Source: Rikenella microfusus
Lineage (GTDB): Bacteria; Bacteroidota; Bacteroidia; Bacteroidales; VadinHA17
Length of the DNA stretch: 64,000 bases
NCBI GenBank assembly: GCA_022736275.1
Contig: DZBJ01000003.1
Coordinates: forward strand, 6,727 to 70,726
Direction: 5' to 3'
The notes below the pieces were generated by a model. The model made no database searches. It was not told the origin of the DNA and saw only the letters and a list, made by a program, of their open reading frames with translations. Below, one piece after another: positions 1 through 53,202 of the stretch; the stretch's first letter is position 1, and each line of letters begins with the position of its first letter. The position numbers and the translations under genes are program-made.

Positions 1-94
1 TATCCGTATCGATCCATGATTCACATCCTGTGAATAACAGGACAAGTATTGCCAATAAGGCAATATTCGATTTATATAAACTTTTCATTTTCAT
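1..94 (-). CDS. SusD/RagB-family lipoprotein, N-terminal fragment (gene runs off the window start)
   Basis: My translation of the reverse complement from the ATG at 94 gives MKMKSLYKSNIALLAILVLLFTGCESWIDTD. This is a signal peptide with a lipobox Cys, located 25 nt downstream of the SusC stop in the usual susC-susD arrangement. Only 31 aa are visible, so the family call rests on context. Confidence 0.5.
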   Translation of the reverse strand, partial: MKMKSLYKSNIALLAILVLLFTGCESWIDTD

Positions 95-118
95 TGTTTT
101 TAAAGATTCTTTGAGTGT

Positions 119-3313: not shown

Positions 3314-3424
3314 ACTGGAATGATTTAGTTTAGGGATGATTATTAGAGTTATTAAGCTGATTATACATATTTTTTATAATTTCTTATTAAATGTATATAT
3401 TAGATATCGTTAATAGCATTATTA

Positions 3425-4471: not shown

Positions 4472-4896
4472 GTAATAAACAGTGAAATCTGGAATATTAT
4501 CAACGTCACGATACCCAGGCTCAGAAGGGTGGATGTTATCTTTTGTCTGCCCATCTCATTGGCTATCAGACCGGGAATTATGTAACCAATGGACTGCAGA
4601 TCGAGTTTCATTATTTCTGCCGGCTGGATCAGATTATCAATTAGAAGCTTAAGGAAGAAGCTGAGAAGGACCGCAAGCAGGAACTTCCTCCTGCTGTATA
4701 GTATAAAATACTGTGACGCCATCCTGATGATACCGTACACAATCATTGCAATAATGACAGTCATGGTAATCCTGTCAGGTTCGTAAATAAACAGAGCAAA
4801 ATATGCAGGGGCAATCACTCCGCCTGGCGATATCCCGGTTAACTCATAAAAGATAAATCCAACCACTAATCCGATGATAAATAGCTGGAGTATCAT
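4468..4896 (-). CDS. pgsC: Poly-gamma-glutamate biosynthesis membrane protein PgsC/CapC
   Basis: 142 aa polytopic protein. ILYSRRKF and GYIIPGLIAN match the ILYGRRKF and GIIVPGLIAN segments of Bacillus PgsC as I recall them. It has 4-nt overlaps with both neighbours. Confidence 0.85.
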   Translation of the reverse strand: MILQLFIIGLVVGFIFYELTGISPGGVIAPAYFALFIYEPDRITMTVIIAMIVYGIIRMASQYFILYSRRKFLLAVLLSFFLKLLIDNLIQPAEIMKLDLQSIGYIIPGLIANEMGRQKITSTLLSLGIVTLIIFQISLFIT

Positions 4897-6032: not shown

Positions 6033-6081
6033 GATTTTCGTTTGATGAGATCCCTAAACAGGAATATCAATTCATTAATTA

Positions 6082-7782
6082 TCAGTATCCTATGGCTATT
6101 CCTCCTCTTCTTTTGTCTGCGGATCCCGAATACTCGCCGGTTATGGGGTCTACAAATATCATTTGGGCCCCTCCGAAAAAGAGGTCTATGCCATTATAGA
6201 CTTTAACCTGGTGGCCCATCTTCTCAAGTTCTGAACAGACTTCCGGATTAATCCCTGATTCAACATGTAAATAATCTTCAAACTTCTGGCAATAAAACCT
6301 GGGAGCAAGGTTTGCTTCATTTACATCCATACCAAAATCGATAACATTTACTACAAGCTCAATAAGTGTTGTAGTAATGCGGCTTGCGCCCGGGCTGCCA
6401 AGTATCAGAAAGGGATTTCCGTTTTTTAGGATTATAGTTGGAGTGATCGATGTCCTGCATCGCTTGCCATTCTGCATATAATTGACATTCTCAACATTGT
6501 ATGAGAAGTTAGTCATTGCATTATTAAACAGCACTCCTGATACTGTTTGTCCTGATCCGAAAAAAAGTCCCAGTGTCTGTGTCAATGCTACTGCATTGCC
6601 ATCCTTATCTATCACTGACAGGTGGGTTGTATGTCCTTCCGCGGGTTCCATCACGAGCGCCGGCTCCTTCCTGAAAGCTTTGTCAAATGCCCCGGGATTA
6701 CCGTAGTCGGCATCCCTGTATCTTGGAGGATCTAGTTTTGACTGGTTGATGCTATTGTATCTTTCCAGAGCATAGTCTTTGGAAGTAAGGCCAGCTACTG
6801 GCACACTTACGAAATCTGGGTCTCCGAGGAACTGATACCTGTCAGCATAGACCAGTTTTTCGACCTCAGCCATTATATGCAATGTTTTTGCTGATTCACT
6901 ATAATGACCACTGGCTTGAAGATCGAAGTTCTCAAGCATATTGAGACCCTGGATCAGGCTTATGCCTGACTGTGGGATATTGGATGTGAGGATATCATAA
7001 CTCCTGTAAGTACCATTCAACGGTGAAGTGATCTCTGCCTGGTAGGATGAAAAATCTTTCTCTGTCAGGACCCCTCCCCGGTCTCTGATACCTTCTACAA
7101 AAGACTCTGCCAGCTGACCTTCGTAGAATCCATTTCTGCCCTTTTCAGCAATGGTGCGCAGGACCTTCCCCAGATCGCTCTGAAGAAGTAATTCTCCCTC
7201 CATCCTGGGAAAGCCATTCTCAAGGAATACAGACGCAGTGACCGAGTCACTCATTATGTTATCGATATTGTCAAGGATAAGCTTGGCGAGGGTCTGGTCA
7301 ATAGGAAAGCCATCTTCAGCATGTCTTACTGCCGGTTCCATGATCTTACTGAGTGGCAGGCTCCCGAATTTCTCATGTGCCATTAGAAGACCTGCGACGG
7401 TGCCGGGCACCTCTATTGCCTTGCCGGAATAATTATCCCGTCCCGACTTAAAACTAGCTTCAGAGGCCCTCTCTGAGCTTCTCCCGTAGTAATTGATAAA
7501 GTACGATTTATGTTCCTTTTTCAGGTATATTACCATCCCGCCGCCACCACCAAGGCCTGAACCGTCGGGTTCAACAACGCCAATTGTAAAAGCAGCTGCT
7601 ACTGCAGCATCAACAGCATTTCCACCGCTTTTAAGCATTTCTATTGCGGCAGCGGAAGCCAGCGGATGGGCCGTGGCAACAATCCCGTTCCTTCCGGTTG
7701 ACTGGGGCAGTGACTGTCCCAGGATACCTGCATTAAATACTAATGCAAACAGTACAATAAGTTGAAGAGTTATCTTTCTCAT
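6082..7782 (-). CDS. ggt: Gamma-glutamyltransferase (GGT/CapD family, Ntn hydrolase)
   Basis: 566 aa with a signal peptide. The autoprocessing and nucleophile site reads EGHTTHLSVIDKDGNAVALTQTLG, and GSPGASRITTT lies near the C-terminus. Confidence 0.9.
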   Translation of the reverse strand: MRKITLQLIVLFALVFNAGILGQSLPQSTGRNGIVATAHPLASAAAIEMLKSGGNAVDAAVAAAFTIGVVEPDGSGLGGGGGMVIYLKKEHKSYFINYYGRSSERASEASFKSGRDNYSGKAIEVPGTVAGLLMAHEKFGSLPLSKIMEPAVRHAEDGFPIDQTLAKLILDNIDNIMSDSVTASVFLENGFPRMEGELLLQSDLGKVLRTIAEKGRNGFYEGQLAESFVEGIRDRGGVLTEKDFSSYQAEITSPLNGTYRSYDILTSNIPQSGISLIQGLNMLENFDLQASGHYSESAKTLHIMAEVEKLVYADRYQFLGDPDFVSVPVAGLTSKDYALERYNSINQSKLDPPRYRDADYGNPGAFDKAFRKEPALVMEPAEGHTTHLSVIDKDGNAVALTQTLGLFFGSGQTVSGVLFNNAMTNFSYNVENVNYMQNGKRCRTSITPTIILKNGNPFLILGSPGASRITTTLIELVVNVIDFGMDVNEANLAPRFYCQKFEDYLHVESGINPEVCSELEKMGHQVKVYNGIDLFFGGAQMIFVDPITGEYSGSADKRRGGIAIGY

Positions 7783-7826
7783 GGAATTTGCTGTATCTCG
7801 TTTGTTATTGTCATAATATCAATCTG

Positions 7827-8372
7827 TTACTTGAAAAAGTTGCCAAGGGGTATTTCCGTCTCCGCAATTTTCACCACAAGGGTCAGGGGGATATTTTTAG
7901 CTTTGGAGATAGTGGTGAAGAATCCGTCTTCATCACCCTGCTTAACCACAAGCATAGATTTTGAGTTTTCGGCAACAATTTGATTGAAGGCATCTGACTG
8001 TCCTTGTCTGCGCGCACTGCCGCCTATATGAATCATCACAATCGGTATCTTAAGGTCATTTGCAGATTTTATAAGGGCCTTGACTCTCTCCATCTCCTCC
8101 TGCTGGCTTATCCCGGCAGCTCCCAGTCCCTTTGAACTGAAGCCCGGGACAATGATCAATGTCTTAAATCCCGTGAGGTCTGCCGACTTAGCCATCAGGA
8201 TGGTTGTTGCATTAAGACCCTGCCTCTGGGCAAGCATCTTAACCAGCTTAACATCTGCACTCTGCCCGGCAGATGATATAAGTACCGGTTGTTTAAATTT
8301 CTGTGCCTCAACTGATAGTGATGTAAAGAATAGAATCAGTATTGCAACGATCATTACACTTCTTGCTTTCAA
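7827..8372 (-). CDS. Secreted hypothetical protein (alpha/beta pattern, unknown function)
   Basis: 181 aa with the signal peptide MKARSVMIVAILILFFTSLSVEAQ. I recognise no motif. It sits in the operon between the AstE-like gene and ggt. Confidence 0.6.
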   Translation of the reverse strand: MKARSVMIVAILILFFTSLSVEAQKFKQPVLISSAGQSADVKLVKMLAQRQGLNATTILMAKSADLTGFKTLIIVPGFSSKGLGAAGISQQEEMERVKALIKSANDLKIPIVMIHIGGSARRQGQSDAFNQIVAENSKSMLVVKQGDEDGFFTTISKAKNIPLTLVVKIAETEIPLGNFFK

Positions 8373-8383
8373 ATTTCTATTTT

Positions 8384-9514
8384 TTAGTTCTTTAAATATT
8401 CACCCACTCCATTTTCCATAATCATATCATAGTCGGGCAGGTTTTCAACCACGATTTGCATCTCAGGATAGTAATAATTATAAGAGTTAATCAGCTCAAT
8501 GAAGCCCATAATATGCCTTCCGACACGATGTTCAATGGGTTCACCTGTCTCTTCCCTGTAAGCAATTCTTAACGCACCTGTTTCTTTTGCCTTTTTATAA
8601 TTGTCACAATCACCTCTCAGGACGAGGTCAACATTGGTCTCACCTCTTAATCTTCCCATAGAAGGATTACTGGTCTCCATGAGAAAGGGGATTGCGTTGG
8701 TATAGTCACCCCATTCCCGGTGGCTCAGGCCATGAAAATTCTTTGGAGATGTCTCAGGTGAAAACTGCAGCCCGGCCATCTCAAGTCCCAGTACGGCGTT
8801 CATAGCTATATCTTCATATTTTTCATTGTAGACAATAACATTTACAATCGGTACTTCCGGCGAGGATTCATGAAGATCGAAGGCAATATTTACATTCTCT
8901 TTTTTGATTATTTGAATAATTGCATAGGCCACCTTTTCAGTCAGGGTCCCGTCAGGCCGGCCCGGGTATGCGCGGTTAATATTTCTTGTTTCAAACCCGG
9001 ACAATTGCTGGTTTGAAGGATACTGTGCAAAAACCAGGGGATCAGGCCATTGATCAAGAGGATTTGTCACTCTCGAGCCAAGCCTGAACACCCGCGTGCC
9101 ATTTTTAGTCGGTATCTCATAAGATGAGGGGAAGCCTTCCATGGGATCAGAACAGGTAAATGCGCTGTTATTCAGCCGGGGGATAATGATCACCCTGCCA
9201 CAGGTGACCCTGAGGTTCTCGAGTATGACTACGGTTGAAAGAAAGGAAGCCGCTTCATTGGCATGGGTCCCGCCGCAAAGAAGAGCGGTACCACCTGCCA
9301 CGCCGCTGTCATACAGGTAGACTTCCGTATCACCGTTGGTGCCGGTGATGCCATCAAAATAATCGCTCAGCATTCCTTTACTTGTAAGGCTGGCGCTGGG
9401 ATACAATACCTCGGGGTGATGCATTTTACCGAATGCAATTGCTGCTATGACACCCATAGCAGCTGTTAAGATTGAGATTATGATGGTGGAGAGATGATTT
9501 CTGATCATAGCCAT
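8384..9514 (-). CDS. Succinylglutamate desuccinylase/aspartoacylase (AstE/AspA)-family zinc amidohydrolase, membrane-anchored
   Basis: 376 aa with an N-terminal TM helix (LSTIIISILTAAMGVIAAIAF). The GGTHANEAAS motif (H-x-x-E metal site) and the later DLHES are typical of the M14-like AstE/AspA fold. Confidence 0.65.
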   Translation of the reverse strand: MAMIRNHLSTIIISILTAAMGVIAAIAFGKMHHPEVLYPSASLTSKGMLSDYFDGITGTNGDTEVYLYDSGVAGGTALLCGGTHANEAASFLSTVVILENLRVTCGRVIIIPRLNNSAFTCSDPMEGFPSSYEIPTKNGTRVFRLGSRVTNPLDQWPDPLVFAQYPSNQQLSGFETRNINRAYPGRPDGTLTEKVAYAIIQIIKKENVNIAFDLHESSPEVPIVNVIVYNEKYEDIAMNAVLGLEMAGLQFSPETSPKNFHGLSHREWGDYTNAIPFLMETSNPSMGRLRGETNVDLVLRGDCDNYKKAKETGALRIAYREETGEPIEHRVGRHIMGFIELINSYNYYYPEMQIVVENLPDYDMIMENGVGEYLKN

Positions 9515-9660
9515 TACTTAATTTGAAGTAAACGAACAATGAAAATTAGCAGTACCATCGCTATGGCCAGTTGATTCCTCCATTTTTTCTCCTTCAGGAA
9601 TTCAATTATAACCACGAAGGTGACATAGGCAAGGATCAGTGTATAAATAACATATAGCAT
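9514..9660 (-). CDS. Small two-helix membrane protein (48 aa), absent from the supplied ORF track
   Basis: My translation gives MLYVIYTLILAYVTFVVIIEFLKEKKWRNQLAIAMVLLIFIVRLLQIK. That is two hydrophobic helices around a basic loop. Its stop codon (9514-9516) shares one base with the ATG of the downstream gene, and its ATG lies 10 nt after the permease stop. Confidence 0.45.
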   Translation of the reverse strand: MLYVIYTLILAYVTFVVIIEFLKEKKWRNQLAIAMVLLIFIVRLLQIK

Positions 9661-9669
9661 AACTCTGTT

Positions 9670-10935
9670 TTACAGTATCAAGTTTGATATTTCCTGGGCA
9701 AAGACAAGTATCAATATCCCTATTGTCATTGAAATAGCGATAGGGATGAGACATGTCTTCAGTATCTTAAAGTGATTTTTCTCTTCGATGATCTGGGCTG
9801 AGTATGCACAAATCAGTGCAGGAGGAGGCATCAAATCTCCCAGGGCAGCCATGAGCACGAGTACTGCGGTAACCACAAGGGTACTTTTACCAATAAATAC
9901 ATAGACAAGCGGTACACCAATTATTGATGCAGAACCATAGGCAGATCCCATGAAAGGCATAAGGCCGGCTGCGAGGTACCTTATTCCCTCAGGCAGGCCA
10001 AGTGCTGTTACTGCCAGGTAACCACGGACTCCCGTCAGGGCGAGTATCTGCAGAAACATCCCTACACCTACTAGGATAGCCATTACAGGCATAGCGCTGC
10101 TAAGTGCTTTTCTTGACACATCAATCAACCTGACCCCTTTCCGTGTTAACAACCCGAGAAGTGTTCCAAGTATAAAAATCAGCGGGACACCAAGATGAGG
10201 AACATACTCATGAAACCTTATTTCACCAATCATGTACAGGATGACGAAGACTATCGGCAGATAGAGTTTTAAACCATATTTCTCATCCTCTGTAGAATCA
10301 AGGTATTGCTTCACTTTTACAACATTGTAATCGCGAAGGTACCTGTACCTGAAATAGAGTGCAGTGATCAGGGCCGGAGGCATCGAGACAAGCAGGAGAG
10401 GGAGACCAAATCCGATATAGGGCATGTCAACGCCACCGCCTATGATCATCACCGGTATGCTGATTGGGGGGGCCACCTCACCGAAAACGGCTGCCATAGC
10501 TATGAGGGCACCAACAGCCAGCCTTTGCATACCAATGTTTATCAGTATAGGTGCAATCAGAGCCCCCGTAGTCAGGATACATGTTGATGACAAGCCGGTG
10601 AGCATACCCGGAAACATAACAAAAACAGTAATCACTATTATAAGAAGGGTTGGCTGCCGGTAAAAAAGCTTGAGAATGCCTCTGCTAACCCCTGCGAGTG
10701 CGCCGGTTTCCTGCATTACACGCATGAAAATCATCGCTGTTGAGATTATCAGAATAGCCTCAAGAAAGCCAAAACCTCCCTCTACCAGATGCCTAGCCGG
10801 TATACCCTGGCCCCCTGTGAGAGCTCCCACAACAGCTGCCAGCATGAGAGAAACACCTGCGGGCATCTTGAGAAGAAAGATACTTAATGCAAATGTTGCA
10901 AGCATGCAAATGAAAATGATCAACTCAATACTCAT
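9670..10935 (-). CDS. DctM/TRAP-large-subunit-like (ion-transporter superfamily) permease
   Basis: 421 aa polytopic membrane protein. The N-terminal region resembles DctM-type permeases. No DctP or DctQ partner of normal size is adjacent. Confidence 0.55.
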   Translation of the reverse strand: MSIELIIFICMLATFALSIFLLKMPAGVSLMLAAVVGALTGGQGIPARHLVEGGFGFLEAILIISTAMIFMRVMQETGALAGVSRGILKLFYRQPTLLIIVITVFVMFPGMLTGLSSTCILTTGALIAPILINIGMQRLAVGALIAMAAVFGEVAPPISIPVMIIGGGVDMPYIGFGLPLLLVSMPPALITALYFRYRYLRDYNVVKVKQYLDSTEDEKYGLKLYLPIVFVILYMIGEIRFHEYVPHLGVPLIFILGTLLGLLTRKGVRLIDVSRKALSSAMPVMAILVGVGMFLQILALTGVRGYLAVTALGLPEGIRYLAAGLMPFMGSAYGSASIIGVPLVYVFIGKSTLVVTAVLVLMAALGDLMPPPALICAYSAQIIEEKNHFKILKTCLIPIAISMTIGILILVFAQEISNLIL

Positions 10936-11039
10936 AAATGAAAGTTATGCAATATGCCGTTCCCAAAAGCCATGCCAGTATTCCAAGTTACTGATTTATA
11001 ATATAATATAAGAGACCGTCCATGTTTGTTTAGGATGAC

Positions 11040-11127
11040 CCGGGCTGAAAAAGCCCATTGGATTGAGGTAATTCAGCCCGGATCAGCCAGGGCAACAGGT
11101 GCCAGCGGCTTCTCCGGGCACCTTTTT
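11040..11127 (+). promoter_or_regulatory. Structured intergenic element with competing hairpins plus an intrinsic-terminator-like stem and T5; candidate attenuator/riboswitch leader or small RNA
   Basis: A perfect 10-bp stem pairs ccgggctgaa (11040-11049) with ttcagcccgg (11072-11081). A mutually exclusive local hairpin pairs gggct (11042-11046) with agccc (11052-11056). A second stem pairs aggtgcc (11097-11103) with ggcacct (11117-11123), and the run ttttt (11123-11127) follows, sharing its first T with the stem end. Confidence 0.3.
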
Positions 11128-11357
11128 GCTTTGTCCGTATATGGGAGCATTTGCCTTGAATTTAAAGCATATGATGAATGAAGGATGCAATAACAGAGCC
11201 GTTGCTTTCATAAGATGAGGTGCTTTAAAGAAATTGGCCTGTTTTTTGATCGTGGGTGCAAGTAGTTAAAGAGAAATCAAAAATTTATTTCTCATTCACT
11301 CATTTAGATTTCTCATTACGGGAGAATTAGTTAATGTGAAATTTCAGACAAAGATCA

Positions 11358-12320
11358 ATGGCAAAATCAAAGCAGAGGTATAGAAACATATACTTCTTTC
11401 TGTTGTTTTTATTAATATCGGTTCCATTTCTTGCAGCACAAGAGATACCTACTGCTGGTTTTATTGATGGAACAAATGGATACATTGGCTTTCTGCCTGG
11501 CAATATGCCGCTGGTTATTTCCATTCCACATGGCGGGTATTTGATGCCTGATGAGATTCCTGAGAGGCCATGTGTCAACTGTTCTAAGAATCAGGATATT
11601 TTTACCCTCGAGATCGGTATGGGAATAAGAGATGCAATATTCAGACAAACCGGTCACTACCCGTACGTCATTATTAATAATCTGCACCGGACAAGGTTGG
11701 ATCCAAATCGGAACATATCAGAAGCATCAGATGGAAATAAGAATGCAGAACTTGTTTGGCACCAGTTCCAGAATTGTATTGATAGTGCATGCTCAGAAGT
11801 AGAAAGCAAATTTGGGAAGGGGTTGTATATTGACCTTCATGGACATCGTCATCTGATTAAAAGGACAGAATTGGGGTACTTACTGAGTAATGAGGAACTT
11901 CAGTTAGAGGATGAACTTCTTGACCTGGACTCATTTGTGGAATTCAGCAGTATCAAGAGCCTGGTTGACAATAATTTAAATAGATTGTCATTTTCACAGT
12001 TGATTAGGGGTAAAGACAGTTTTGGAAGTTTATTTGAGGCGAAGGGCTACCCCACTGTTCCTAGCCGCGGAATTCCGTTTCCGGACTCCGGAGAGCCTTA
12101 TTTTAGCGGGGGTTATAACACAACCCGTCATGGATCATCCCAGGGTGGGACAATAGATGGGATACAGATTGAGCTCGATGAGGAGCTTAGAAGAGATATG
12201 TCAAAACGCGATAAATTGGTTGCCGATCTCGCATGTACTATGGTTGAGTTTCTTAAGATCCATTATTTCCCGGATGCTGATTTTCTCGGAGAGATGGCTC
12301 CCGGTAACAAACAACCGTAG
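11358..12320 (+). CDS. Secreted N-formylglutamate amidohydrolase (FGase)-family protein
   Basis: 320 aa with a signal peptide. ISIPHGGYLMPDEIPE and YIDLHGHRH resemble FGase-family metal and substrate motifs. The family assignment is from memory. Confidence 0.5.
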   Translation: MAKSKQRYRNIYFFLLFLLISVPFLAAQEIPTAGFIDGTNGYIGFLPGNMPLVISIPHGGYLMPDEIPERPCVNCSKNQDIFTLEIGMGIRDAIFRQTGHYPYVIINNLHRTRLDPNRNISEASDGNKNAELVWHQFQNCIDSACSEVESKFGKGLYIDLHGHRHLIKRTELGYLLSNEELQLEDELLDLDSFVEFSSIKSLVDNNLNRLSFSQLIRGKDSFGSLFEAKGYPTVPSRGIPFPDSGEPYFSGGYNTTRHGSSQGGTIDGIQIELDEELRRDMSKRDKLVADLACTMVEFLKIHYFPDADFLGEMAPGNKQP

Positions 12321-43029: not shown

Positions 43030-44853
43030 TCACCGGAAAGGCAGCACCCCGGGAGGGCTAGGATCAAAATTCGGAGGTTTCAGTCTGACGACGCCGTCGA
43101 TGTCGAACCAAGATTTTTCCGAGTAGGGCGGTGTGTTCGGATACCAGGCGAATCTGATCTGCAAGGTGTTCAGCACAAGCTGATCATTCCTGATCCTGAT
43201 ACCGGCCCCGATGGCAGGAACGGTATAGGATCCTCCGCTGGAGAACCCCTCCGGTGCCAGTATCCCGACATCAGCAAATGCAAAAAGAGCGAACCTGAAG
43301 CCTATCAGACCCTTATTGATCAGCAAAACCGGCTCCATCGAGAATACCAGACGGGTTTCTCCGCCTATCGAATCGTTTCTGAAGCCTCTCACAAGGTCAC
43401 TGTTCTTCAGGTACAGAAACTCATCGGTATAGCGGTTGAAACCCCTTGTGTAATAAAGGTTGACGAAAGTCCTTACCTTAGACCTGCCTGCCTGCATCAG
43501 CGGGGTGAAATACCTGAAGCTGGCTTGCGTCATGCCCTGTTCCGTACGGCCCTGGTTATAAAACGTCGAAATGCTGGCTCCGCCATAGATATAGCCAATC
43601 CTTGTGAAGATATTGCCGAATGATATCTTTATCCCGGCATATGTCCTCCATTTGAATTCATTATTCTCCCTGCCGCCCAGCAGCTCAACCATATATCCGT
43701 ATGGAATGTCCTCTGTCCTTCCGTAACTGTATATGAGAGATGTATTTACAAATCTCTGTGATGAGATTGCCAGACTGCCTGTCACCATCTGGTAATTCTG
43801 AAGGCGGTAGTAGGAGAAATCATCTATCTCAGGCCTGCTGAAGACATTGTTGTGGATATACCTGCCGCTGAAAATCAGTCGTGTCACCCTGCTCCGGTCA
43901 ACCATGAACGCCCGTGACAGCCAGTAGTCCTGGTAGGTGTAACTGAGCGGTACCGCCTGCACCATTGTATCCAGATCTTCAGAGGTATATGTGAGCATCA
44001 ACGATGCTGACCATGCATATTTTGTATCCGAGGTCACGAACTCACGGCTGAACACGCCTCCCATCGTGGTTGTTCCCAGGCCGTCAGCGAATTCCAGGTC
44101 AAGGTTGGCGAGGGTACCCCTTATGTTTGTGACTGAATACCTGGCACCGAACCCGGGATAAGGGAATTCATTGAAGTTGTATGGCATCGACAGGGTCAGT
44201 TCATGGCCCATTCCTGCAAAGTTCTTGTCGAAAGCCCTGATCATGCCTCTTTCGACATCATCGAACCTGACACTGGCCCCGTACGGGTATTTTTCCCGGA
44301 CAATAACGGCGATATCTGCAAAGATGCTGTCAACGGCTACTATTATAATCCGGGCATCATCAACGAATGGCAATTCTCGCAGGAGACGTTCATTATCGGC
44401 CAGCCTCAGTGAGGATACAGTATCTCCTTCATTGAAAAGGAGGTACTTGTTCAGGACAAACTTCTTTGTTTTTGTATATGATGAATTTAAAAGCTTCTCA
44501 ACTTTTGACGGGTCATTCTCCTCCGGGTTATCTATGTTTGTGCCAAAGGCATTAAGCCGGATGATCTGCATGTTCCTTATTACCCTGCCTTCATATGCAT
44601 CGTAAGCTGAGGTGTTTTTCATGTTTTCCCTCGCTGAGCCCGGCGGCACGGGCCTGACAATGATCATGTCATAAAGCAGGCTGGTTATCCTGCGTTTCTC
44701 AGCCCTGACCTTCAGAGAGTCATAAAATGCTTTTGACAGCGTGTCATTCGGGGTCACCTCCTGGGCCTTCAGATGGGAGCCGGGAGAAAAGAGCAAGAGG
44801 TGAAAAAGCAAAAATGATCCGGGGAGTATGAATTTATTGACGCATGGCTTCAC
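43030..44853 (-). CDS. Omp85/BamA-TpsB-like outer-membrane beta-barrel with a POTRA-like N-terminal domain
   Basis: 607 aa with a signal peptide. The POTRA-like segment runs IRNMQIIRLN...GDTVSSLRLADNERLLRELPFVDDARIIIV. The rest alternates hydrophobic residues in a beta-strand pattern and ends in an aromatic-rich C-terminus (..GVLPFR). Confidence 0.5.
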   Translation of the reverse strand: MKPCVNKFILPGSFLLFHLLLFSPGSHLKAQEVTPNDTLSKAFYDSLKVRAEKRRITSLLYDMIIVRPVPPGSARENMKNTSAYDAYEGRVIRNMQIIRLNAFGTNIDNPEENDPSKVEKLLNSSYTKTKKFVLNKYLLFNEGDTVSSLRLADNERLLRELPFVDDARIIIVAVDSIFADIAVIVREKYPYGASVRFDDVERGMIRAFDKNFAGMGHELTLSMPYNFNEFPYPGFGARYSVTNIRGTLANLDLEFADGLGTTTMGGVFSREFVTSDTKYAWSASLMLTYTSEDLDTMVQAVPLSYTYQDYWLSRAFMVDRSRVTRLIFSGRYIHNNVFSRPEIDDFSYYRLQNYQMVTGSLAISSQRFVNTSLIYSYGRTEDIPYGYMVELLGGRENNEFKWRTYAGIKISFGNIFTRIGYIYGGASISTFYNQGRTEQGMTQASFRYFTPLMQAGRSKVRTFVNLYYTRGFNRYTDEFLYLKNSDLVRGFRNDSIGGETRLVFSMEPVLLINKGLIGFRFALFAFADVGILAPEGFSSGGSYTVPAIGAGIRIRNDQLVLNTLQIRFAWYPNTPPYSEKSWFDIDGVVRLKPPNFDPSPPGVLPFR

Positions 44854-45563
44854 TGTGTCTTTGAATTGGCATCCAGAACATCGTCAGAGTTAAACTGAAA
44901 CCCCAGCCTTTTCCCGGTTATCAGCCGTGAATGCTGAATCTTAGATTCTGCCTGACCTACGGAAGCGATCTTCACAGTGTCATATGGCGGCACCAGCAGA
45001 TCAAATTCGAGTGAATAGTTGATGGCGGTATAAACGACTTTTTGCAGTGACTCAATGCTGAAGGCTTCATTTCCGTAGTTGGTGAAAAGCATTCCCATCT
45101 GCCTTTTACCTTCGACAAAGTACTGGTTCTCATGGTTGATGAAAATACGGGCGATGAGATATCCCAGGTCATCGAGCCTTTGATATTTGAATGAGTCAGC
45201 CAGGAAGTTGTAAATGTTTATTATACCGCTGTAGGCGTTGAACTTGTTTTTCTGAATATATGCGGTTTTCCAGGCGGGATGTTCACGGTCAAACTGGAAA
45301 ATGTTGGAGTGCATGCTGAAGAGAAGCGTGTCGGCAGCAACCATCAGTTGCGCGTCAAAAGTACTCCTGTCAGTATATTCCATGCGTACCCTGGGGTCTA
45401 CTCCTCCAAGGTTGCCGTTCACCTCCTTCGCCAATTGCTTGAGTATCTCCTTGATCATCATGAAAACCGTTCCGGTATTGTCAAAGACCTTCTGCTTAAG
45501 TACGGACTTGGTCTTCAGGGTCTCAACTATCAATGCCTTTCTCTGGCCTGTATCGTCAGTCAT
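44850..45563 (-). CDS. Hypothetical protein without a signal peptide
   Basis: 237 aa with no recognised motif. It overlaps the downstream Omp85-like gene by 4 nt. Confidence 0.6.
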   Translation of the reverse strand: MTDDTGQRKALIVETLKTKSVLKQKVFDNTGTVFMMIKEILKQLAKEVNGNLGGVDPRVRMEYTDRSTFDAQLMVAADTLLFSMHSNIFQFDREHPAWKTAYIQKNKFNAYSGIINIYNFLADSFKYQRLDDLGYLIARIFINHENQYFVEGKRQMGMLFTNYGNEAFSIESLQKVVYTAINYSLEFDLLVPPYDTVKIASVGQAESKIQHSRLITGKRLGFQFNSDDVLDANSKTQ

Positions 45564-45628: not shown

Positions 45629-47104
45629 TTAATATGCCCTGGCAAAGAGCACCCTCCTGTGAGAAGGCTGGCCTGTAAGGATACATTTGCCCTCTTCCTC
45701 CGGACTGTTGAACGGTATCGCCCTGATGGTGGCTTTGGACAGGTTCTTGATCTTCTCCTCGGTCTCAGCCGTTCCATCCCAGTGTGCCATCACAAATCCT
45801 CCTTTGTTTTCAATGATATCCATAAACTCATCCCAGGTGTCAACCCTGTATGTATTACGGGTCCTGAATTCAAAGGCCTTCCTGTAGATGTTTTTCTGTA
45901 TCTCATCCATCAGGGTTGTTACATGCTCAACGATATTCTCACGACTCACGGTCTCCTTGGTCAGGGTGTCACGGCGCGCAACCTCTACAGTGCCTTCAGT
46001 TGCATCACGGGGGCCAATGGCCAGCCTTACGGGGACACCCTTCAGTTCGTACTCGGCAAATTTGAAGCCTGGTTTCTGGGTGTCACGGTCGTCATACTTT
46101 ACGGACAGACCTGCCTTTTCAAGCTTTTCCTTCATCTCAAGAGCTATGGCAGATATTGAGTCAAGCTGTTCATTTCCCTTGTATATGGGGACTATCACCA
46201 CCTGTATGGGTGCCAGCTTCGGAGGAAGAACCAGTCCGTTGTTGTCTGCATGAGCCATTACGAGAGCTCCTATAAGCCTTGTGGTCACACCCCATGAAGT
46301 GGCCCAGACGTAGTCAAGTTTGCCTTCGCGGCTGGTGAACTGAACATCGAACGCCTTTGCAAAATTCTGCCCCAGGAAATGACTTGTGCCTCCCTGTAGT
46401 GCCTTGCCGTCCTGCATAAGCATCTCAATGGTGTATGTATCAATGGCCCCCGCAAACTTCTCGCTCTCGGTCTTGACCCCCTTAATCACAGGCACAGCCA
46501 TGTAATTCTCAACAAAATCCGAATAGACACCCTGCATCCTCAATGCCTCCTCCTGAGCCTCTTCCATCGTGGCATGTGCAGTATGTCCTTCCTGCCAGAG
46601 GAACTCCGTTGTACGCAGGAAGAGCCTGGTGCGCATCTCCCACCTGACCACGTTCGCCCACTGGTTTATAAGCAGGGGAAGGTCACGGTATGACTGTATC
46701 CAGTCCTTGTAGGTGTTCCATATGATGGTCTCTGACGTGGGCCTGATAATAAGCTCCTCCTCCAGTTTGGCATCCGGATCCACAACAATGCCCTTCCCGT
46801 CAGGTGAAGTCTTCAGGCGATAATGGGTTACTACCGCGCACTCCTTCGCAAACCCCTCAACATGAGCAGCTTCCCTGCTGAAAAACGATTTCGGGATGAA
46901 GAGCGGGAAATAGGCGTTGACATGCCCTGTGGCCTTGAATTTCCTGTCGAGCTCAGCCTGAACCTTCTCCCAGATGGCGTAACCGTATGGTTTGATCACC
47001 ATGCATCCGCGCACTGCCGAGTTCTCGGCCAGATCGGCTTTGATCACCAGATCATTGTACCATTGTGAATAATTTTCCTCCCTGTTAGTAAGAAACTTGG
47101 CCAT
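45629..47104 (-). CDS. proS: Proline--tRNA ligase (archaeal/eukaryote-like type)
   Basis: 491 aa with class-II motifs (..IRPTSE.., ..[14 protein letters not shown]..). The C-terminal domain ends ..VLFARAY. Confidence 0.95.
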
Positions 47105-47194: not shown

Positions 47195-48586
47195 ATGAAG
47201 AAGAAAAAAATACTCACCGCTATCATCATTACGGCAGCCGCAACACTGTCCGCAGCATCATACGCTACACCACCGGAAGGTGACGGGCGGACCGGCAACA
47301 GCACCCCACAGCAGGTGGTTGTGAACAACTATTATCACGACGGAGGTTACGAATATGCATCGAGAATAAAGAGGTTTCACACTTCCTATGTGACTTTCGA
47401 CTTCTACTCGCCGGTGTTTACAGAGACCTACTGGTACAGGTACACTCCATATTCATGGGGTATCTCAATATATGACGACTGGTACTATTACGGTGCGGGT
47501 TTTTCACAAAATGCATGGAGGAGCGGATTCGGAGGCTCTTACTGGTGGGGCTTTGACCAGTGGAGGGGATATAGCCCCTGGATGGGTTACGGATGGAACT
47601 CGTGGTACGGTGGGAGCATAAGCTACAGCGTCAATTTTTACCTCGGCAGGCCACATTACCATTATCCGGTGGCATGCAACAGCTGGAACAGTTACCGTTC
47701 CGGAAACCACTACAGTGCTGTCACTGTAAACAATTACAACACTTACAACTATTACTACGGGTCAGAAAAGAGGAGCAGCTCCCAGGGCAATTCCATAAAT
47801 TATAACCCTGCAAATTCAAGCTCATCAGCACGCCGGTCAGGGTACACCTCAACCGGTGGCAGGAGCTCTGCTGCCGGAGCTGCCGCGGGAGCATCCGGCA
47901 GCGATGCCACTCAGCCCGGTTCCCAGAGCCGCTCGCAGGCTGGAACGCAGAGCCGTTCGCAGACAGGTACCCGGAGTCAGGCCCAGGCAGGCAGCCAGGG
48001 TCAGGCTCAGGCTCAGACAGGAAATCAGGGCCGCGACCAGACAGGTAATGCACCGGATGCTCACTCCGGAGGAGATAAGAATAATGGGAACAACGGTCTC
48101 CGCATGGGACAATACAGGAGAGGAGTTGCCGAACCCGCCGAGCCCGGAGATAACGGCCTGCCCCGCACCAACAATCCCAATGTGAATGACCGGACAGACC
48201 CGGGCAGGGAACAAGACAACGCTGCAGGCAACAGCGGCAGGCAGAACACCAGGACCAAACAGAACAACGGTGGCCAGCAGACCAGCCCATCACAGAACAG
48301 CAGTGGCCAGCAGCCAGGCACTCAGCAGGGCAGCAGCGGTCAGAAGTCTTCAGCAGACCGGGCGCCGGCAAGATCCATGCCCCGACGGCAGGTTCAGACC
48401 ATGGTGCATAACGCCACAGAAACCGGTGAGGCTATTGTGCGAAAGGAAACTCCGTCAGGCAACTCCTCACAAAAAGAAAAATCAGCTCAGCAGGGCAACG
48501 GGAAGAGGGCTGAAAACTCTTCCGAAGCAACTGCTGCGGGCAATGAATCAGGAAAAAGTACCACTTCTTCACGAAAGAAACGATAA
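47195..48586 (+). CDS. Secreted low-complexity protein with a Tyr/Trp/Gly-rich core and a Ser/Gln/Gly/Asn/Arg-rich disordered tail
   Basis: Signal peptide MKKKKILTAIIITAAATLSAASYA. It shares the VVNNYY motif with the next gene. The aromatic segment reads GSYWWGFDQWRGYSPWMGYGWNSWYGG. About 260 aa of polar tail end in SRKKR. The ORF track starts at a TTG at 47129. I prefer the ATG at 47195. Confidence 0.7.
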   Translation: MKKKKILTAIIITAAATLSAASYATPPEGDGRTGNSTPQQVVVNNYYHDGGYEYASRIKRFHTSYVTFDFYSPVFTETYWYRYTPYSWGISIYDDWYYYGAGFSQNAWRSGFGGSYWWGFDQWRGYSPWMGYGWNSWYGGSISYSVNFYLGRPHYHYPVACNSWNSYRSGNHYSAVTVNNYNTYNYYYGSEKRSSSQGNSINYNPANSSSSARRSGYTSTGGRSSAAGAAAGASGSDATQPGSQSRSQAGTQSRSQTGTRSQAQAGSQGQAQAQTGNQGRDQTGNAPDAHSGGDKNNGNNGLRMGQYRRGVAEPAEPGDNGLPRTNNPNVNDRTDPGREQDNAAGNSGRQNTRTKQNNGGQQTSPSQNSSGQQPGTQQGSSGQKSSADRAPARSMPRRQVQTMVHNATETGEAIVRKETPSGNSSQKEKSAQQGNGKRAENSSEATAAGNESGKSTTSSRKKR

Positions 48587-48658
48587 TTGGAAGCCTTGCC
48601 GGGCATAATTGGTACGGAATTTGTATAAATTTGTGGTAGATAACCACAGGAGGGTAAA

Positions 48659-50110
48659 ATGAAAAAGTTCTGGTACATAATTCCGGCAATAGTTCTGACA
48701 GCTGGCTCGTGCACATCAACGAGCTACACAGGAGCTTCCAATGACGACCTGTACTACAGACCATCGGAAGAACAGGTTACCCCATCAGCGGCCACCGTTC
48801 AGGCCGTAAGTACAGACCCGGCGTACTATGATAATATCTTTGCCGCCGACACCCTCATAGCCGACGAATACAATCCCGATAGCGAATATCTGGCTTACAA
48901 TACCGCTTCCGAGGCTGCAGTGGTAAACAACTACTACGGCAGCAGCGCTGCCGAAAGGATATACCTTTTCAATGACAGTTTCTATCCTTACTGGCAAGAT
49001 CCATACTATTATTCGCCATTCTCGATGAGCCTCAGCTTCGGGTTTGGATACGGCTACGGCTACGGGGGCTACTACGGATATCCTTATGGTTATTATCCCT
49101 ACTATGACTGGTACTATCCTTACTACGGCTGGGGCGGATATCCATACTATCCGTATTACGGCTATCCATACGGCGGTTGCTGCTATCCTCCCTATTACGG
49201 AAGTGGTGATTACTACGTCACTGAGGGCCGCAGGGGCGGCTACAGCACCATGTCCGGAGGCGCATACACCAGCTCTGATACCAGGAGCAAGTCCGGGTAC
49301 GCGCCAGCATCGGGGTCATATACCAGCAGGAGGCTTGGCTCCTCATCTGCAGGCACAGCAGCAACCGCAGGAACTGCTGCAATGGCAGCCACATCCGGCA
49401 CCCGCAGAACAGCCGCGGAAACCGGTACCTATACCAAGGCAGGAGGATCTGCAACTGATGTCGTAACAAGACCTGAATACACCCGCCGCGATGGCACTGG
49501 CGCAACCAGCCAGACACAGACCAGGACTCAGTCACAGGTAAGACCTGAGAGCGTTACGCAGGCTCAAACACAGACAAGAAGCCAGTCGCAGTACCAGACG
49601 CCGTCCAGAACACAGACGCAGACACAGTCACAGACGCAGACACAGTCACAGACGCCGTCCAGAACACAGACACAGACGCAGAGCGTGAACAGACCGCAGT
49701 ACCAAACTACCGAGCGGACTTACACCCCGAGCTACAACACCCCGAGGGTAACCTCAAGACCTTCATATAACACCACACGCAGCACTGAAACGACGCAGAG
49801 CAGCGGTACCGTCTACAACAGGAGCTCGTCATCACCCAGCAGAAGCTCATCGGGATACTCGCCCTCGAGATCATCTTCACCGTCGGTGCAGTACTCCACC
49901 CCCTCACGCAGCAGCTCATCGTCACCAAGCTATAACAGGAGCAGCAGCGGATCATCATACTCCGGCGGCGGCAGCAGAAGCTACAGCTCAGGCAGCTCCG
50001 GCGGTTCAAGCTCCGGCGGCAGCTACAGCGGAGGATCATCCTCAGGCTCATCCTCAGGCGGATCACGTTCGTCATCGTCCTCATCCTCTTCGGGCGGTTC
50101 CAGGAGATAA
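48659..50110 (+). CDS. Lipoprotein-like low-complexity paralog with a Tyr/Gly/Pro-rich core, Thr/Gln/Ser repeats and a Ser/Gly tail
   Basis: Signal peptide with lipobox-like LTAGSC. It has the VVNNYY motif and the segment GYGYGYGGYYGYPYGYYPYYDWYYPYYGWGGYPYYPYYGYPYGG. QTPSRTQTQTQSQTQTQS is repeated. The tail reads SSGGSSSGGSYSGGSSSGSSSGGSRSSSSSSSSGGSRR. Confidence 0.7.
   Translation: MKKFWYIIPAIVLTAGSCTSTSYTGASNDDLYYRPSEEQVTPSAATVQAVSTDPAYYDNIFAADTLIADEYNPDSEYLAYNTASEAAVVNNYYGSSAAERIYLFNDSFYPYWQDPYYYSPFSMSLSFGFGYGYGYGGYYGYPYGYYPYYDWYYPYYGWGGYPYYPYYGYPYGGCCYPPYYGSGDYYVTEGRRGGYSTMSGGAYTSSDTRSKSGYAPASGSYTSRRLGSSSAGTAATAGTAAMAATSGTRRTAAETGTYTKAGGSATDVVTRPEYTRRDGTGATSQTQTRTQSQVRPESVTQAQTQTRSQSQYQTPSRTQTQTQSQTQTQSQTPSRTQTQTQSVNRPQYQTTERTYTPSYNTPRVTSRPSYNTTRSTETTQSSGTVYNRSSSSPSRSSSGYSPSRSSSPSVQYSTPSRSSSSSPSYNRSSSGSSYSGGGSRSYSSGSSGGSSSGGSYSGGSSSGSSSGGSRSSSSSSSSGGSRR
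49595..49684 (+). repeat. In-frame coding tandem repeat (54-nt unit built from cagacN hexamers)
   Basis: cagacgccgtccagaacacagac begins at both 49595 and 49649, a period of 54 nt or 18 aa. Cagaca, cagacg and cagtca hexamers fill the interval between them. Confidence 0.85.
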
Positions 50111-50187
50111 ATTAACCGGCATACAGAAAACGTTCATGTTCCGCAAAAACCAGGAGCAACAGGGATTGTATACAAAAAAAACAGGAA

Positions 50188-51702
50188 ATGAAAAGGAAAA
50201 TAGCACTCACAGCCACCATCGTTCTGCTGCTCCCGCTCTGGGTCAGCAGCCAGACCCTGGATGATGCACTCAGGTATTCAAAGACCTTCTATCAGGGTAC
50301 TGCCAGGTTTAACGGCATGAGCGGTGCCTTCACCGCCCTGGGCGGCGACATCTCGGCCATAGGCATTAACCCGGCCGCAGCAGGAGTCTTCCGCTCAACG
50401 GAATTTGCGGTCACACCTATGGTCCTTTTCCGTGACCTGAATACCAATTATAAAGGTTTTGGCAATAATGACAGCTACTCCGGATTCATCCTGGGTCAGA
50501 TAGGAGTGGTCTCCGCCTTCGGTACAGGCAATAGCTCGGGATTGACAAATATGAGCCTGGCCTACACATTCAACAGGACAAACAACTACTTCCGAAATTC
50601 AATTATTGACGGAATCAATGATGACGGCTCAATGGCCGACTTCTGGGCTCTCCAGGCCAACGGCTACAGGACCGGCGAACTGACAGGGGCCCCCTGGATG
50701 GCTTATGAGGCTTACCTTATAGATACACTTTCAGGATACCTTGACCAGTATGCATCAATATTCTCATATTACGGTGATGGTCCACCAACATATGGTCAGC
50801 AGGTGAAGCGAACCATCGACAATGCCGGTTTCAGTAACGAACATACAATTGCCCTTGGTGCCAATATCAGTGACAAGATTTACTTTGGCATTGGTTTTGG
50901 AATAACAAGCATCTCATATTCAGGGCATTATGTTCACAGAGAAATTGATGAGGCTCAGAGGGTGTTTGACTTTGTTAACTTTACATATACTGATCACTTC
51001 AATGCCTCCGGCTCAGGCTGGAACTTCAAGGTCGGAACAATACTCAGACCAGTGGAATCACTCAGGCTGGGATTCAGTTTCACCACACCTACCTGGTACA
51101 ATATAGATGAGGTGTTCTATAATAACCTTACTGCGTTCCTCGACAATGATACACCTAATAACAGCAATGATGACGCAAGTCCTGTAATCAACTCTGATGA
51201 CATGGGGTATCGCTATCGCATTACCACTCCCTACCACATCAACGCGGGTATCGCTTACCAGATAGGTAATTTCGGGCTGATCAGCGCTGATTACGAGTTT
51301 ATTGATTATGGCAAGGCAAGACTGAGCGACGGCTCTGACGGTTATAACTTCAATGATGAAAATCAAGATATGGTAACCGAACTGGGTAGTGCGGGAACTT
51401 TCCGGATAGGAGCCGAGGCGCGTATTAGCGGATTCTATCTGAGAGGCGGTTACAGTTACACCGGATCTGCTTTCCAGGAAGGAACCCTGAATGAGAATGC
51501 AGACGCCAATGGCTACAGCGCAGGGATAGGTTACAGACACGATAACTTCTTTGTTGATATGTCAATGGTCTGGCTGAACAGCTACGAGGCCTATATGATG
51601 TATCCCGATGATCCGAGGAGCAATCCCCTTTACAGCAGTGATCCTGTGGACATGTTTACGAAAGATAAATACCTGTCGTTTACGGTTGGACTGAAATTCT
51701 GA
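50188..51702 (+). CDS. FadL/PorV-like outer-membrane beta-barrel protein (hypothetical)
   Basis: 504 aa with a signal peptide. The N-terminal segment GTARFNGMSGAFTALGGDISAIGINPAAAG resembles the conserved N-terminal hatch of FadL/OmpP1-type barrels. The protein ends ..SFTVGLKF. Confidence 0.55.
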   Translation: MKRKIALTATIVLLLPLWVSSQTLDDALRYSKTFYQGTARFNGMSGAFTALGGDISAIGINPAAAGVFRSTEFAVTPMVLFRDLNTNYKGFGNNDSYSGFILGQIGVVSAFGTGNSSGLTNMSLAYTFNRTNNYFRNSIIDGINDDGSMADFWALQANGYRTGELTGAPWMAYEAYLIDTLSGYLDQYASIFSYYGDGPPTYGQQVKRTIDNAGFSNEHTIALGANISDKIYFGIGFGITSISYSGHYVHREIDEAQRVFDFVNFTYTDHFNASGSGWNFKVGTILRPVESLRLGFSFTTPTWYNIDEVFYNNLTAFLDNDTPNNSNDDASPVINSDDMGYRYRITTPYHINAGIAYQIGNFGLISADYEFIDYGKARLSDGSDGYNFNDENQDMVTELGSAGTFRIGAEARISGFYLRGGYSYTGSAFQEGTLNENADANGYSAGIGYRHDNFFVDMSMVWLNSYEAYMMYPDDPRSNPLYSSDPVDMFTKDKYLSFTVGLKF

Positions 51703-53104: not shown

Positions 53105-53202
53105 GTTTTCTACTCTTTTTGTTCATACTGATACTTCAATGGCGCCGGGACTCTGTGGCAATGTCTTTGTAACCCGTTTTCCAATGAGTTAATTTGTTAT
53201 TG

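Follow-up and report, generated by a model that had tools for sequence, protein, structure and literature searches.

Pairs of an outer-membrane barrel and a lipoprotein, such as SusCD, BamG-BamH and the anchors of type IX secretion systems (T9SS), are an organising principle of the Bacteroidota outer membrane, and the lipoprotein partners characterised so far are all folded. PorQ and PorP/SprF hold T9SS partners, and the gene of a T9SS barrel of the PorV, PorQ or PorP/SprF kind often lies just downstream of the gene of its partner. PorV acts as a dock for T9SS partner proteins (PMC12578637), and type B C-terminal domain proteins are reported to associate with PorP-like proteins (PMC9143113). 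The lipoprotein BamH has a conserved lipidated N-terminus, which BamG grips by means of its own conserved extended N-terminus (PMC12578637, PMC12611786); this N-terminus is the conserved element of BamG, its loops being variable, and BamG2 and BamH2 are encoded in a putative operon (PMC12578637). Here we describe, by computational analysis, a pair of this known kind in which the barrel belongs to a new clade and the partner is a lipoprotein of extreme composition that is apparently wholly disordered. It is encoded in a 64,000-nucleotide stretch of Rikenella microfusus DNA (contig DZBJ01000003.1 of assembly GCA_022736275.1, positions 6,727 to 70,726 of the forward strand), hereafter the window, and is probably the sign of a cell-envelope module not yet described rather than of an amyloid system like curli.

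In the open reading frame (ORF) list of the window, three genes follow one another on the same strand at 47195-51702: A, B and then the barrel gene. The cassette is bordered by the divergent proS gene and by convergent WbqC, LarB and LarC genes. An earlier reading of this DNA, made from its letters without database searches (the sequence-only reading), had described A and B as paralogous secreted proteins with aromatic blocks and polar tails, followed by a FadL/PorV-like barrel, and had compared the three genes in their logic to the curli and Fap amyloid systems. The features that it named are all present (the ORFs, VVNNYY in both proteins, the lipobox, the aromatic blocks, the polar tails and the SRKKR and GGSRR ends). 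Its proposals that both ORFs are conserved as coding, that the two proteins are paralogous, that the LTAGSC of B is a lipobox and that the third gene encodes a FadL/PorV-like barrel agree with the codon-position entropy and the ~70 species, the profile alignment of the core module (99%), the invariant Cys, and the structural model with its Foldseek matches, respectively, which are presented below. The genes concerned are the following (lengths in amino acids, aa):

45629..47104, minus strand: proS (prolyl-tRNA synthetase), divergent neighbour of the cassette, from Pfam tRNA-synt_2b, HGTP_anticodon and ProRS-C_1 matches on orthologues.
47195..48586, plus strand: gene A, predicted secreted non-lipidated paralogue, 463 aa from ATG (ORF; 25 core homologues).
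48659..50110, plus strand: gene B, predicted lipoprotein without a predicted fold, 483 aa (ORF, alignment, ~70 full-length orthologues).
50188..51702, plus strand: barrel gene, outer-membrane beta-barrel of the FadL/PorV superfamily, 504 aa (AlphaFold2 (AF2) model, Foldseek).

B and the barrel gene, 77 nt apart on the same strand in the window, are strictly associated. Our set of close relatives comprised 76 species-level genome loci, all from uncultured Bacteroidales, with p607, p237 and proS on one strand, (A), B and the barrel gene on the other, and WbqC and LarB after them. The barrel gene is found directly 3′ of B in 69 of these loci, the other 7 contigs end first, and none of the 76 has room for the barrel gene after B and lacks it. 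As the whole block is syntenic in close relatives, which might reflect relatedness alone, seven distant contexts were compared. In all seven, the lipoprotein gene is directly followed by a barrel orthologue (30-34% identical) on the same strand, with gaps of 15-119 nt between the called genes, and the other neighbours are different; one of these contexts comes from a metagenome-assembled genome (MAG) of the Salibacteraceae (Flavobacteriales), contig L094. The proS gene, ~71% identical in the distant contexts, is the divergent gene upstream of the lipoprotein in every close relative and in six of the seven distant contexts (L088, L090, L091, L092, L093 and L095), and no proS match was found in the upstream fragment of the Salibacteraceae contig L094.

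What is conserved is the pair of B and the barrel and not the triad, because A is missing in 37 of the 71 informative species loci (present in 34) and in all seven distant contexts. The loci without A have proS-B gaps of 161-627 bp, which leave no room for it. The synteny with the barrel that the sequence-only reading had expected thus holds for B (69/76 loci and 7/7 distant contexts) and fails for a three-gene unit. We regard it as very likely that B and the barrel form a pair, and the distribution of the pair suggests that the module is ancient within Bacteroidota. The pair is widely conserved and uncharacterised, and belongs to uncultured Bacteroidota. The parts of the three genes used below, all on the plus strand, are:

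47291..47470, plus strand: core module of A common to B, aa 33-92 (...QQVVVNNYY..YASRIKRFH..FDFYSPVFTETYWYRYTPYSWGISI); hhalign, translation checked.
48659..48778, plus strand: signal peptide and lipobox of B, then the conserved N-terminal segment C-[ST]-S-x-x-[YF]-x-G-x-x-x-D-D-L-Y-Y-R-P-S; alignment.
48893..49039, plus strand: core module of B common to A, aa 79-127 (AVVNNYY..AERIYLF..FYPYWQDPYYY); hhalign, translation checked.
49040..49228, plus strand: Tyr/Gly/Pro block of B, aa 128-190; composition, translation.
49568..49682, plus strand: imperfect (ACACAG)n or 18-54-nt tandem repeat of B, encoding (TQ)n and TQTQSQ; Tandem Repeats Finder.
49679..49783, plus strand: most conserved short motif of B, within the tail, aa 341-375, QSVNRPQYQTTERTYTPSYNTPRVTSRPSYNTTRS; block identity 0.82, translation checked.
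50087..50107, plus strand: C-terminal SSGGSRR of B; the terminal basic pair is kept in the A and B families.
50251..50400, plus strand: N-terminal hatch of the barrel, aa 22-71 (QTLDDALRYS...GTAR...NPAAAG), with NPA at 50368-50376; alignment, model, translation checked.

A and B are genuine coding genes. The low-complexity DNA leaves several frames open, with ORFs of 100-216 aa in the other frames and on the opposite strand across 47700-50100, so that ORF length alone is weak proof of coding; this, and the fact that public gene callers often fragment the A/B region, would fit an artefact in which the frames of A and B are open by chance, owing to low-complexity DNA, and the barrel is the one real gene. 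The conservation of both genes speaks against it. The core of A has 25 homologues with 43-70% identity. About 70 full-length B orthologues, from about 70 species and with ORFs of ~420-500 aa, keep the frame despite variable tail length, keep the lipobox Cys and the N-terminal motifs, and nearly all complete ones end in ...SGGRR directly before the stop. At the conserved residues of the B tail motif R-T-Y-T-P-S-Y-N-x-P-R, the entropy at codon positions 1/2/3 is 0.19/0.05/1.33 bits (66 distinct DNA sequences), a bias to the third position that points to purifying selection on the protein. The Ser codons of the B tail are mixed, like those of other genes of the window, and hence the Ser runs of the tail are not the product of DNA slippage; only the (TQ)n segment is a DNA-level repeat, and this region is indel-variable among orthologues (alignment columns about 330-420). 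The entropy, the conserved termini and 999 profile-matched clusters with a common architecture (see below) refute the artefact, to which we give practically no chance.

The same region causes technical difficulties in the databases. Public gene calls split A and B into small spurious ORFs (for example L006, 3111-5927), many database entries are marked "partial", 7 of the 76 genome contigs stop inside or just after B, and several long-read MAGs have frameshifted tails (the loci listed for calling or assembly problems are L030, L041, L042, L048, L049, L079 and L084). In the terminal Ser run, L001 and L002, metagenome copies that are otherwise nearly identical, are set apart by two residues. Fragmentation and truncation by gene callers, together with contig breaks, leave the A/B family under-represented in protein databases, making it a blind spot for assembly and gene calling.

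By motif inspection, not by a dedicated predictor, B is a putative lipoprotein and signal peptidase II substrate. Its lipobox reads L-T-A-G-S-C18 (Cys18 codon at 48710-48712), the Cys is invariant in both orthologue alignments, and a lipobox is present in 82 of 92 distant B-family representatives. In the alignment of close orthologues, C18, D29, D30, L31 and Y32 are invariant, as are F104, F108, P110, Y111, W112, P115 and Y117 of the core module; distant B-family members carry a DD(L/V)YY motif 8-14 residues past the Cys. Residues 131-190 consist of 45% Tyr, 25% Gly and 13% Pro, and exact GWGYPYY repeats are found at the equivalent place in distant members. The tail, ~290 residues long, contains 29% Ser, 16% Thr and 10% Arg and ends in GGSRR. 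Within it, aa 341-375 (RTYTPSYNTPR...RPSYN) have the highest block identity of the whole protein (0.82), and a related motif, Y-[ST]-x-P-x-Y-x-K-P-R-S-S, occurs in distant B-family members. Nearly all complete B orthologues end in ...GG(R)RR, and a basic terminal pair is found in 74 of the 92 wider-family representatives.

AF2 modelling of B aa 1-204 (22 sequences) gave no fold (mean pLDDT 44.6), and the protein is apparently fully disordered. Mature B contains only 5.6% I/L/V/M but 62 Tyr and 31 Arg, and eight [GS]Y[GS] triplets occur in the protein. The isoelectric points (pI) of head and tail are 4.05 and 11.1 in the window and have medians of 4.05 and 11.5 in 72 orthologues. This composition makes B a block polyampholyte, conserved as such, whose "stickers" are aromatic residues and Arg, its head acidic and Tyr-rich and its tail basic and rich in Ser, Thr and Arg. 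No Pfam or NCBIfam family matches A or B at E<=1, and ten distant B-family members also lack a match; the YxWGxW-type repeats to which the aromatic block had been loosely likened are therefore not found in either protein at this threshold.

The extracellular location first proposed for A and B lacks any known route to the surface. Bacteroidota surface lipoproteins follow a rule of at least two acidic residues among the first six (PMC12578637), whereas the six residues past the Cys hold no acidic residue in 77 of 82 B-family representatives, window B reading C-T-S-T-S-Y-T; B thus does not carry the lipoprotein export signal (LES) of this type. A T9SS C-terminal domain, including Por_Secre_tail and whether of type A or type B, was found in neither A nor B with Pfam and NCBIfam. 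From these two observations, A and B would by known rules stay periplasmic, and surface exposure would need a new route. They might form a self-associating or adhesive aromatic-rich material.

We observed that D-T-L at B aa 64-66 (48848-48856) is invariant in the aligned close orthologues and that D179-T180-(L) of the barrel (aa 179-181, 50722-50730) is invariant or nearly so. Both fit D-(S/T)-(A/I/L/V/M/T), the general O-glycosylation sequon of Bacteroidetes. Subunits of the BAM complex have been reported to be glycosylated (PMC12578637).

A has a signal peptide (~aa 1-24), the VVNNYY motif, a W/Y/G-rich block and a polar basic tail ending in SRKKR; its orthologues also end in a basic pair. 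Its homologues are mostly 336-370 aa long, a few shorter ones being probably truncated, and conservation is highest in the core (0.64-0.80 identity per 10-residue block). Searched against PDB sequences, this core returned noise only (E>3). BLASTP sees only low-complexity similarity between A and B, so that a profile-profile comparison was needed to establish their relation: hhalign aligned the A-family and B-family profiles over 49 columns (A 33-92 with B 79-127) with 99% probability and an E-value of 3.5e-18, following the pattern VVNNYY..Y..RI.RF...FYP.W.D..YY. By this profile match, A and B are paralogous in the core module.

Searching 1.84 billion representatives with a profile of the B N-terminus retrieved 999 clusters, counted at 50% identity, with E<=1e-3, of which 230 had E<=1e-10. 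Distant members are single lipoproteins, 400-590 aa long, that share one architecture. It comprises a lipobox, (Y)DD(L/V)YY, a polar acidic linker and a full core like that of A (ITNNYY..Y.YS.RIKRF..YYD.YYTN.YWYDYNP.SWGVSIY), followed by GWGYPYY-type repeats, YYGPRG, a long polar region, Y-[ST]-x-P-x-Y-x-KPRSS, repeated SYS.PSRSS and a C-terminal GGRR. This distant single-copy family matches the A profile with 99.6% probability (E 1.4e-24) and the B profile with 100%, scores that low-complexity composition probably inflates. From these patterns, we infer one ancestral lipoprotein that was duplicated in the clade of the window: B would have retained the anchor together with its N-terminal and tail motifs but only a shortened core, and A would have kept the full core, lost the anchor and later been lost repeatedly.

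All B-family members with a source name are "hypothetical proteins" from Bacteroidota MAGs, including one Salibacteraceae (Flavobacteriales) MAG. No cultured carrier was found among 155 genome-collection relatives or the named members of 30 sampled clusters, all of which are MAGs, and many of the source MAG titles refer to sediment, biofilm or reactor samples. A literature search on Tyr-rich or disordered Bacteroidota lipoproteins found nothing on the B family.

The barrel has a signal peptide (aa 1-21) and a C-terminus ...GLKF. Its AF2 model, built with 50 orthologues, reached a pLDDT of 88.7 and a pTM of 0.81, with residues 22-71 non-strand and the first strand starting at residue 72. Conservation within the protein is highest at the N-terminus (Q-x-x-D-D-A-L-R-Y-S ... 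G-T-A-R ... N-P-A), the first ten mature residues being nearly invariant. Q22, D26, L28, R29, S31, G37, A39, R40, G46, A47, G52, N61 and P62 are invariant down to 31% overall identity and A63 is nearly so; N61-P62-A63 align to the NPA of TbuX. According to the alignment, the mature N-terminus is ~7-8 residues longer than that of TbuX, compared with ~10-12 in BamG.

The best 26 Foldseek matches of the model in the PDB are all FadL, TodX, CymD or BamG (E 7e-15 to 7e-9). The top ones are EcFadL, BtBamG (9hiv_F), PaFadL, TodX, FjBamG and PgBamG (E ~1e-15 to 1e-13, target-normalised TM 0.60-0.65), and neither CsgG nor FapF is among the 50 matches listed. Sequence profiles of 50 and of 15 barrel orthologues, compared with all PDB chains at E<=10, retrieved only TbuX (2.6e-4) and PaFadL (0.06). 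The window barrel reached no Pfam gathering score: it had no PF03349 match, and its UPF0164 score was 18.1 bits, below the cut-off of 21.4 bits. It did not match NCBIfam PorV_fam or PorQ at E<=1. Among 15 orthologues, Toluene_X was found in 7 (best E 6e-11) and UPF0164 in 10, and distant orthologues scored 35-46 bits with PorV_fam (NF033709) and 30 bits with PorQ (NF033711), with E-values of 6e-12 to 2e-8, under NCBIfam cut-offs of 90 and 220 bits, respectively. As the FadL-type fold matches but the sequence scores stay below threshold, the barrel is a separate clade of the FadL/PorV/UPF0164 superfamily.

Set beside BamG-BamH and BamG2-BamH2 (PDB 9hiv, 9hjm, 9n2d), the pair has in common a FadL-family barrel with a conserved N-terminus, which may be extended as in BamG, and a lipoprotein partner whose N-terminus is conserved, and the structural match to BtBamG, PgBamG and FjBamG is as good as that to FadL (E ~1e-13 to 1e-15, target-normalised TM 0.63-0.65). 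However, the barrel is ~100 residues longer than BamG, and BamH is a folded crescent-shaped scaffold with a surface-export signal, whereas B has neither a predicted fold nor such a signal. The linkage to proS and the equal structural match had prompted the idea that the barrel is a BamG orthologue. It was rejected, as the PDB profile searches retrieved no BamG chain even at E<=10, although 9hiv_F, 9hjm_F and 9n2d_B are present in the structure library. For the locus tags that flank bamG in F. johnsoniae and B. thetaiotaomicron, the literature gave no neighbourhood information.

The T9SS barrels PorV, PorQ and PorP/SprF belong to the same superfamily, and distant orthologues of our barrel give sub-threshold PorV_fam and PorQ matches, but the barrel has ~500 aa against a PorV_fam profile of 326 positions, its orthologues score 35-46 bits against the required 90, and A and B have no T9SS C-terminal domains. 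With FadL, TodX and TbuX (PF03349, clan MBB) it shares the overall fold, an N-terminal hatch with NPA and a C-terminal aromatic residue; it differs from them by a longer invariant N-terminus, its housekeeping locus and a score below the Pfam gathering threshold. To our knowledge, obligate pairing with a lipoprotein gene is not a feature of characterised FadL systems either.

B can also be compared with FUS-type Tyr/Arg "sticker" proteins, mussel foot proteins, resilin and plant Gly-rich proteins, which it resembles in composition, block layout, scarcity of aliphatics and opposite block charge. A block grammar of aromatic/Gly and Arg/Ser segments drives self-association in FUS-type and Tyr/Gly-rich structural proteins. 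Unlike these, B is a predicted lipid-anchored protein of the bacterial envelope with no homology to them and with only eight [GS]Y[GS] triplets. At the Bacteroidota outer membrane itself, the extracellular loop EL3 of B. thetaiotaomicron BamA has 38 residues, 13 of them Tyr, and is invisible in cryo-EM, and across 861 Bacteroidota BamA homologues EL3 shows an enrichment in Tyr, Gly and Asn (PMC12578637). Its odd composition parallels the aromatic blocks of A and B, and it is likewise disordered and located at the outer membrane, but as a loop inside BamA and not a protein of its own. A Tyr-rich composition thus recurs at this membrane, in the A/B aromatic blocks and in EL3.

A lipoprotein-barrel docking pair is the model that we favour, with a probability of about 40%: the barrel would anchor or position B, and B, together with A where it exists, would make up a hydrated layer that associates with itself. 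B would take the lipoprotein export pathway and be held by its N-terminal lipid anchor, its chain staying essentially unfolded, and the barrel would be its membrane docking partner and not a secretion pore. The likely contact would be between the nearly invariant N-terminal segments of the two proteins. Anchored B, and A through the common aromatic module, might then build the layer on one face of the outer membrane, held by Tyr-Arg contacts and by electrostatic contacts of head with tail. In the lineage of the window, the duplicated non-lipidated copy A would extend the module.

Docking is favoured because of the obligate adjacency, the gene order of partner then barrel and the invariant N-terminal segments in both proteins, and because other Bacteroidota members of the FadL fold dock proteins (BamG-BamH; PorV, PorQ and PorP/SprF). 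The FadL-type model that is equally close to BamG, the sub-threshold PorV and PorQ matches of distant orthologues, and the disorder, the charge blocks and the purifying selection on the tail motifs of B also speak for this model. Several observations weigh against it. By sequence, the solved proteins nearest to the barrel are TbuX, a hydrocarbon transporter, and a FadL homologue from P. aeruginosa, and neither BamG nor PorV; the barrel retains the NPA hatch motif found in FadL proteins that transport; and the long insert 145-203 is also conserved, which would fit a small-molecule site, the loops of BamG being variable. In addition, B lacks the canonical Bacteroidota lipoprotein export signal, so that docking at the surface would require an unfamiliar route, and the family members all come from uncultured organisms.

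Some of these observations could be explained by nutrient uptake, which we consider somewhat unlikely. The barrel would then be a FadL/TodX-type channel for hydrophobic or aromatic compounds (long-chain fatty acids, or the lignin- or humic-derived aromatics common in digesters and sediments), and B a sticky Tyr/Trp-rich capture lipoprotein that passes ligands on in the manner of SusD and SusC. This would account for the sequence relation to TbuX (E 2.6e-4) and the P. aeruginosa FadL homologue, for the Toluene_X matches in 7 of the 15 orthologues, for the conserved 145-203 insert, and for the conservation of the NPA hatch motif and the N-terminus, both important in FadL transport (mutant structures are among the Foldseek matches); the aromatic-rich head of B could bind aromatic or hydrophobic ligands, and many MAG titles point to sediment, biofilm or reactor. 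But the pair sits among housekeeping genes beside proS, apparently as a core gene of the lineage and outside any catabolic or regulated locus, the seven distant contexts show no catabolic genes that co-vary with it, and we know of no FadL system with a lipoprotein partner. It is not obvious how the ~290-residue basic Ser/Arg tail and its conserved motifs would serve in ligand capture, and the missing surface-export signal of B is a further difficulty. Alternatively, B might stay at the outer membrane's inner leaflet and serve as a periplasmic spacer or tether, its disordered chain filling or spanning the periplasm and its basic tail and Arg-Arg end binding peptidoglycan or anionic lipids. The lack of acidic residues past the Cys in 77 of 82 members, the absence of a T9SS C-terminal domain from A and B, and the N-terminal lipid combined with a conserved basic C-terminus and a ~290-residue tail of pI 11.5 are in line with this. 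The layout recalls that of Braun's lipoprotein, Lpp; however, Lpp is covalently attached through a C-terminal Lys, and B ends in Arg. A tether would also leave the strict pairing with a FadL-type barrel without a reason, its 45%-Tyr block would be without precedent in periplasmic tethers, and the known Tyr/Gly/Asn-rich disordered segment of Bacteroidota BamA, loop EL3, is on the extracellular side (PMC12578637). We regard such a tether as unlikely; in this reading, A would be a soluble periplasmic co-polymer and the barrel either an anchoring or assembly partner or linked through co-regulation only.

The curli/Fap analogy, with A and B as secreted fibre subunits (major and nucleator) and the barrel as their dedicated secretion channel, fails on the barrel and is very improbable. 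Two paralogous exported proteins followed by a barrel do resemble the csg and fap loci in gene logic, the blocks are aromatic/Gly-rich with exact heptad repeats GWGYPYY in distant members, and no other export route is evident for A and B. The barrel, however, is a plugged monomeric FadL-type fold with its own N-terminal NPA hatch, CsgG and FapF are absent from the 50 Foldseek matches listed, and no Curlin or Fap Pfam match was found in A or B at E<=1. CsgA and FapC have long imperfect repeats, which A and B do not have, and no sequence or repeat similarity links the systems. Moreover, the aromatic block contains 13% Pro and 25% Gly, B would be lipid-anchored unlike fibre subunits, and A can be dispensed with in half of the lineage and occurs in none of the distant contexts.

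Outside the cassette, the window consists of Bacteroidota DNA of an ordinary housekeeping kind (aroB, aroC, tilS, nth, a SusC-like receptor, htpG), scans for tRNA genes and Rfam families found none in the window, and no T9SS genes lie near the cassette. A pattern search of the three intergenic regions gave a single match to TAnnTTTG, the Bacteroidetes -7 consensus, and this match is a candidate promoter motif:

48626..48633, plus strand: TAAATTTG, fits the -7 promoter motif of Bacteroidetes, TAnnTTTG, and lies 33 nt upstream of the start codon of B; pattern search.

A sigma-70 promoter and terminator scan gave nothing above shuffled expectation, with a promoter model that is wrong for Bacteroidota.

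Downstream of proS, at 43030-45563 on the minus strand, lie two unannotated genes that overlap by 4 bp. The 607-aa protein has a signal peptide and a weak BamA match (TIGR03303, E 1.5e-4), with no Pfam match and no PDB sequence match; the 237-aa protein has no match. Both genes adjoin proS in all close relatives, the 237-aa gene also being found in the distant locus L093, and they may be an uncharacterised Omp85-like pair. On the other side of the cassette, the LarB-LarC gap is just 98 bp (53105-53202), and L006 likewise has no intervening gene; most relatives carry a 265-aa PP-loop (LarE-like) gene between the two. Finally, positions 1-12000 of the window have a GC content of 0.43-0.45, compared with 0.47-0.55 elsewhere, and encode SusC-like TonB-dependent receptor, gamma-glutamyltranspeptidase, Mur-ligase-like, AstE/AspA-like, DctM-like and FGase-like proteins; this segment may be a compositionally distinct island.

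A more specific and speculative form of the docking pair would have a lipid-anchored disordered block protein nucleated at a dedicated FadL/PorV-type barrel, giving a gel- or condensate-like membrane coat through Tyr-Arg contacts, at the surface or in the periplasm. Such a coat, which we think improbable on present grounds, would make the eukaryotic sticker-and-spacer grammar a structural element of the outer membrane in at least Bacteroidales-like and Flavobacteriales lineages, so far seen in metagenomes only. If the docking pair itself is true, it would widen the range of uses of the FadL fold as an anchor for proteins and provide the first conserved disordered lipoprotein as an envelope component, and the Tyr/Gly/Asn-rich loop of BamA might be read in the same way.

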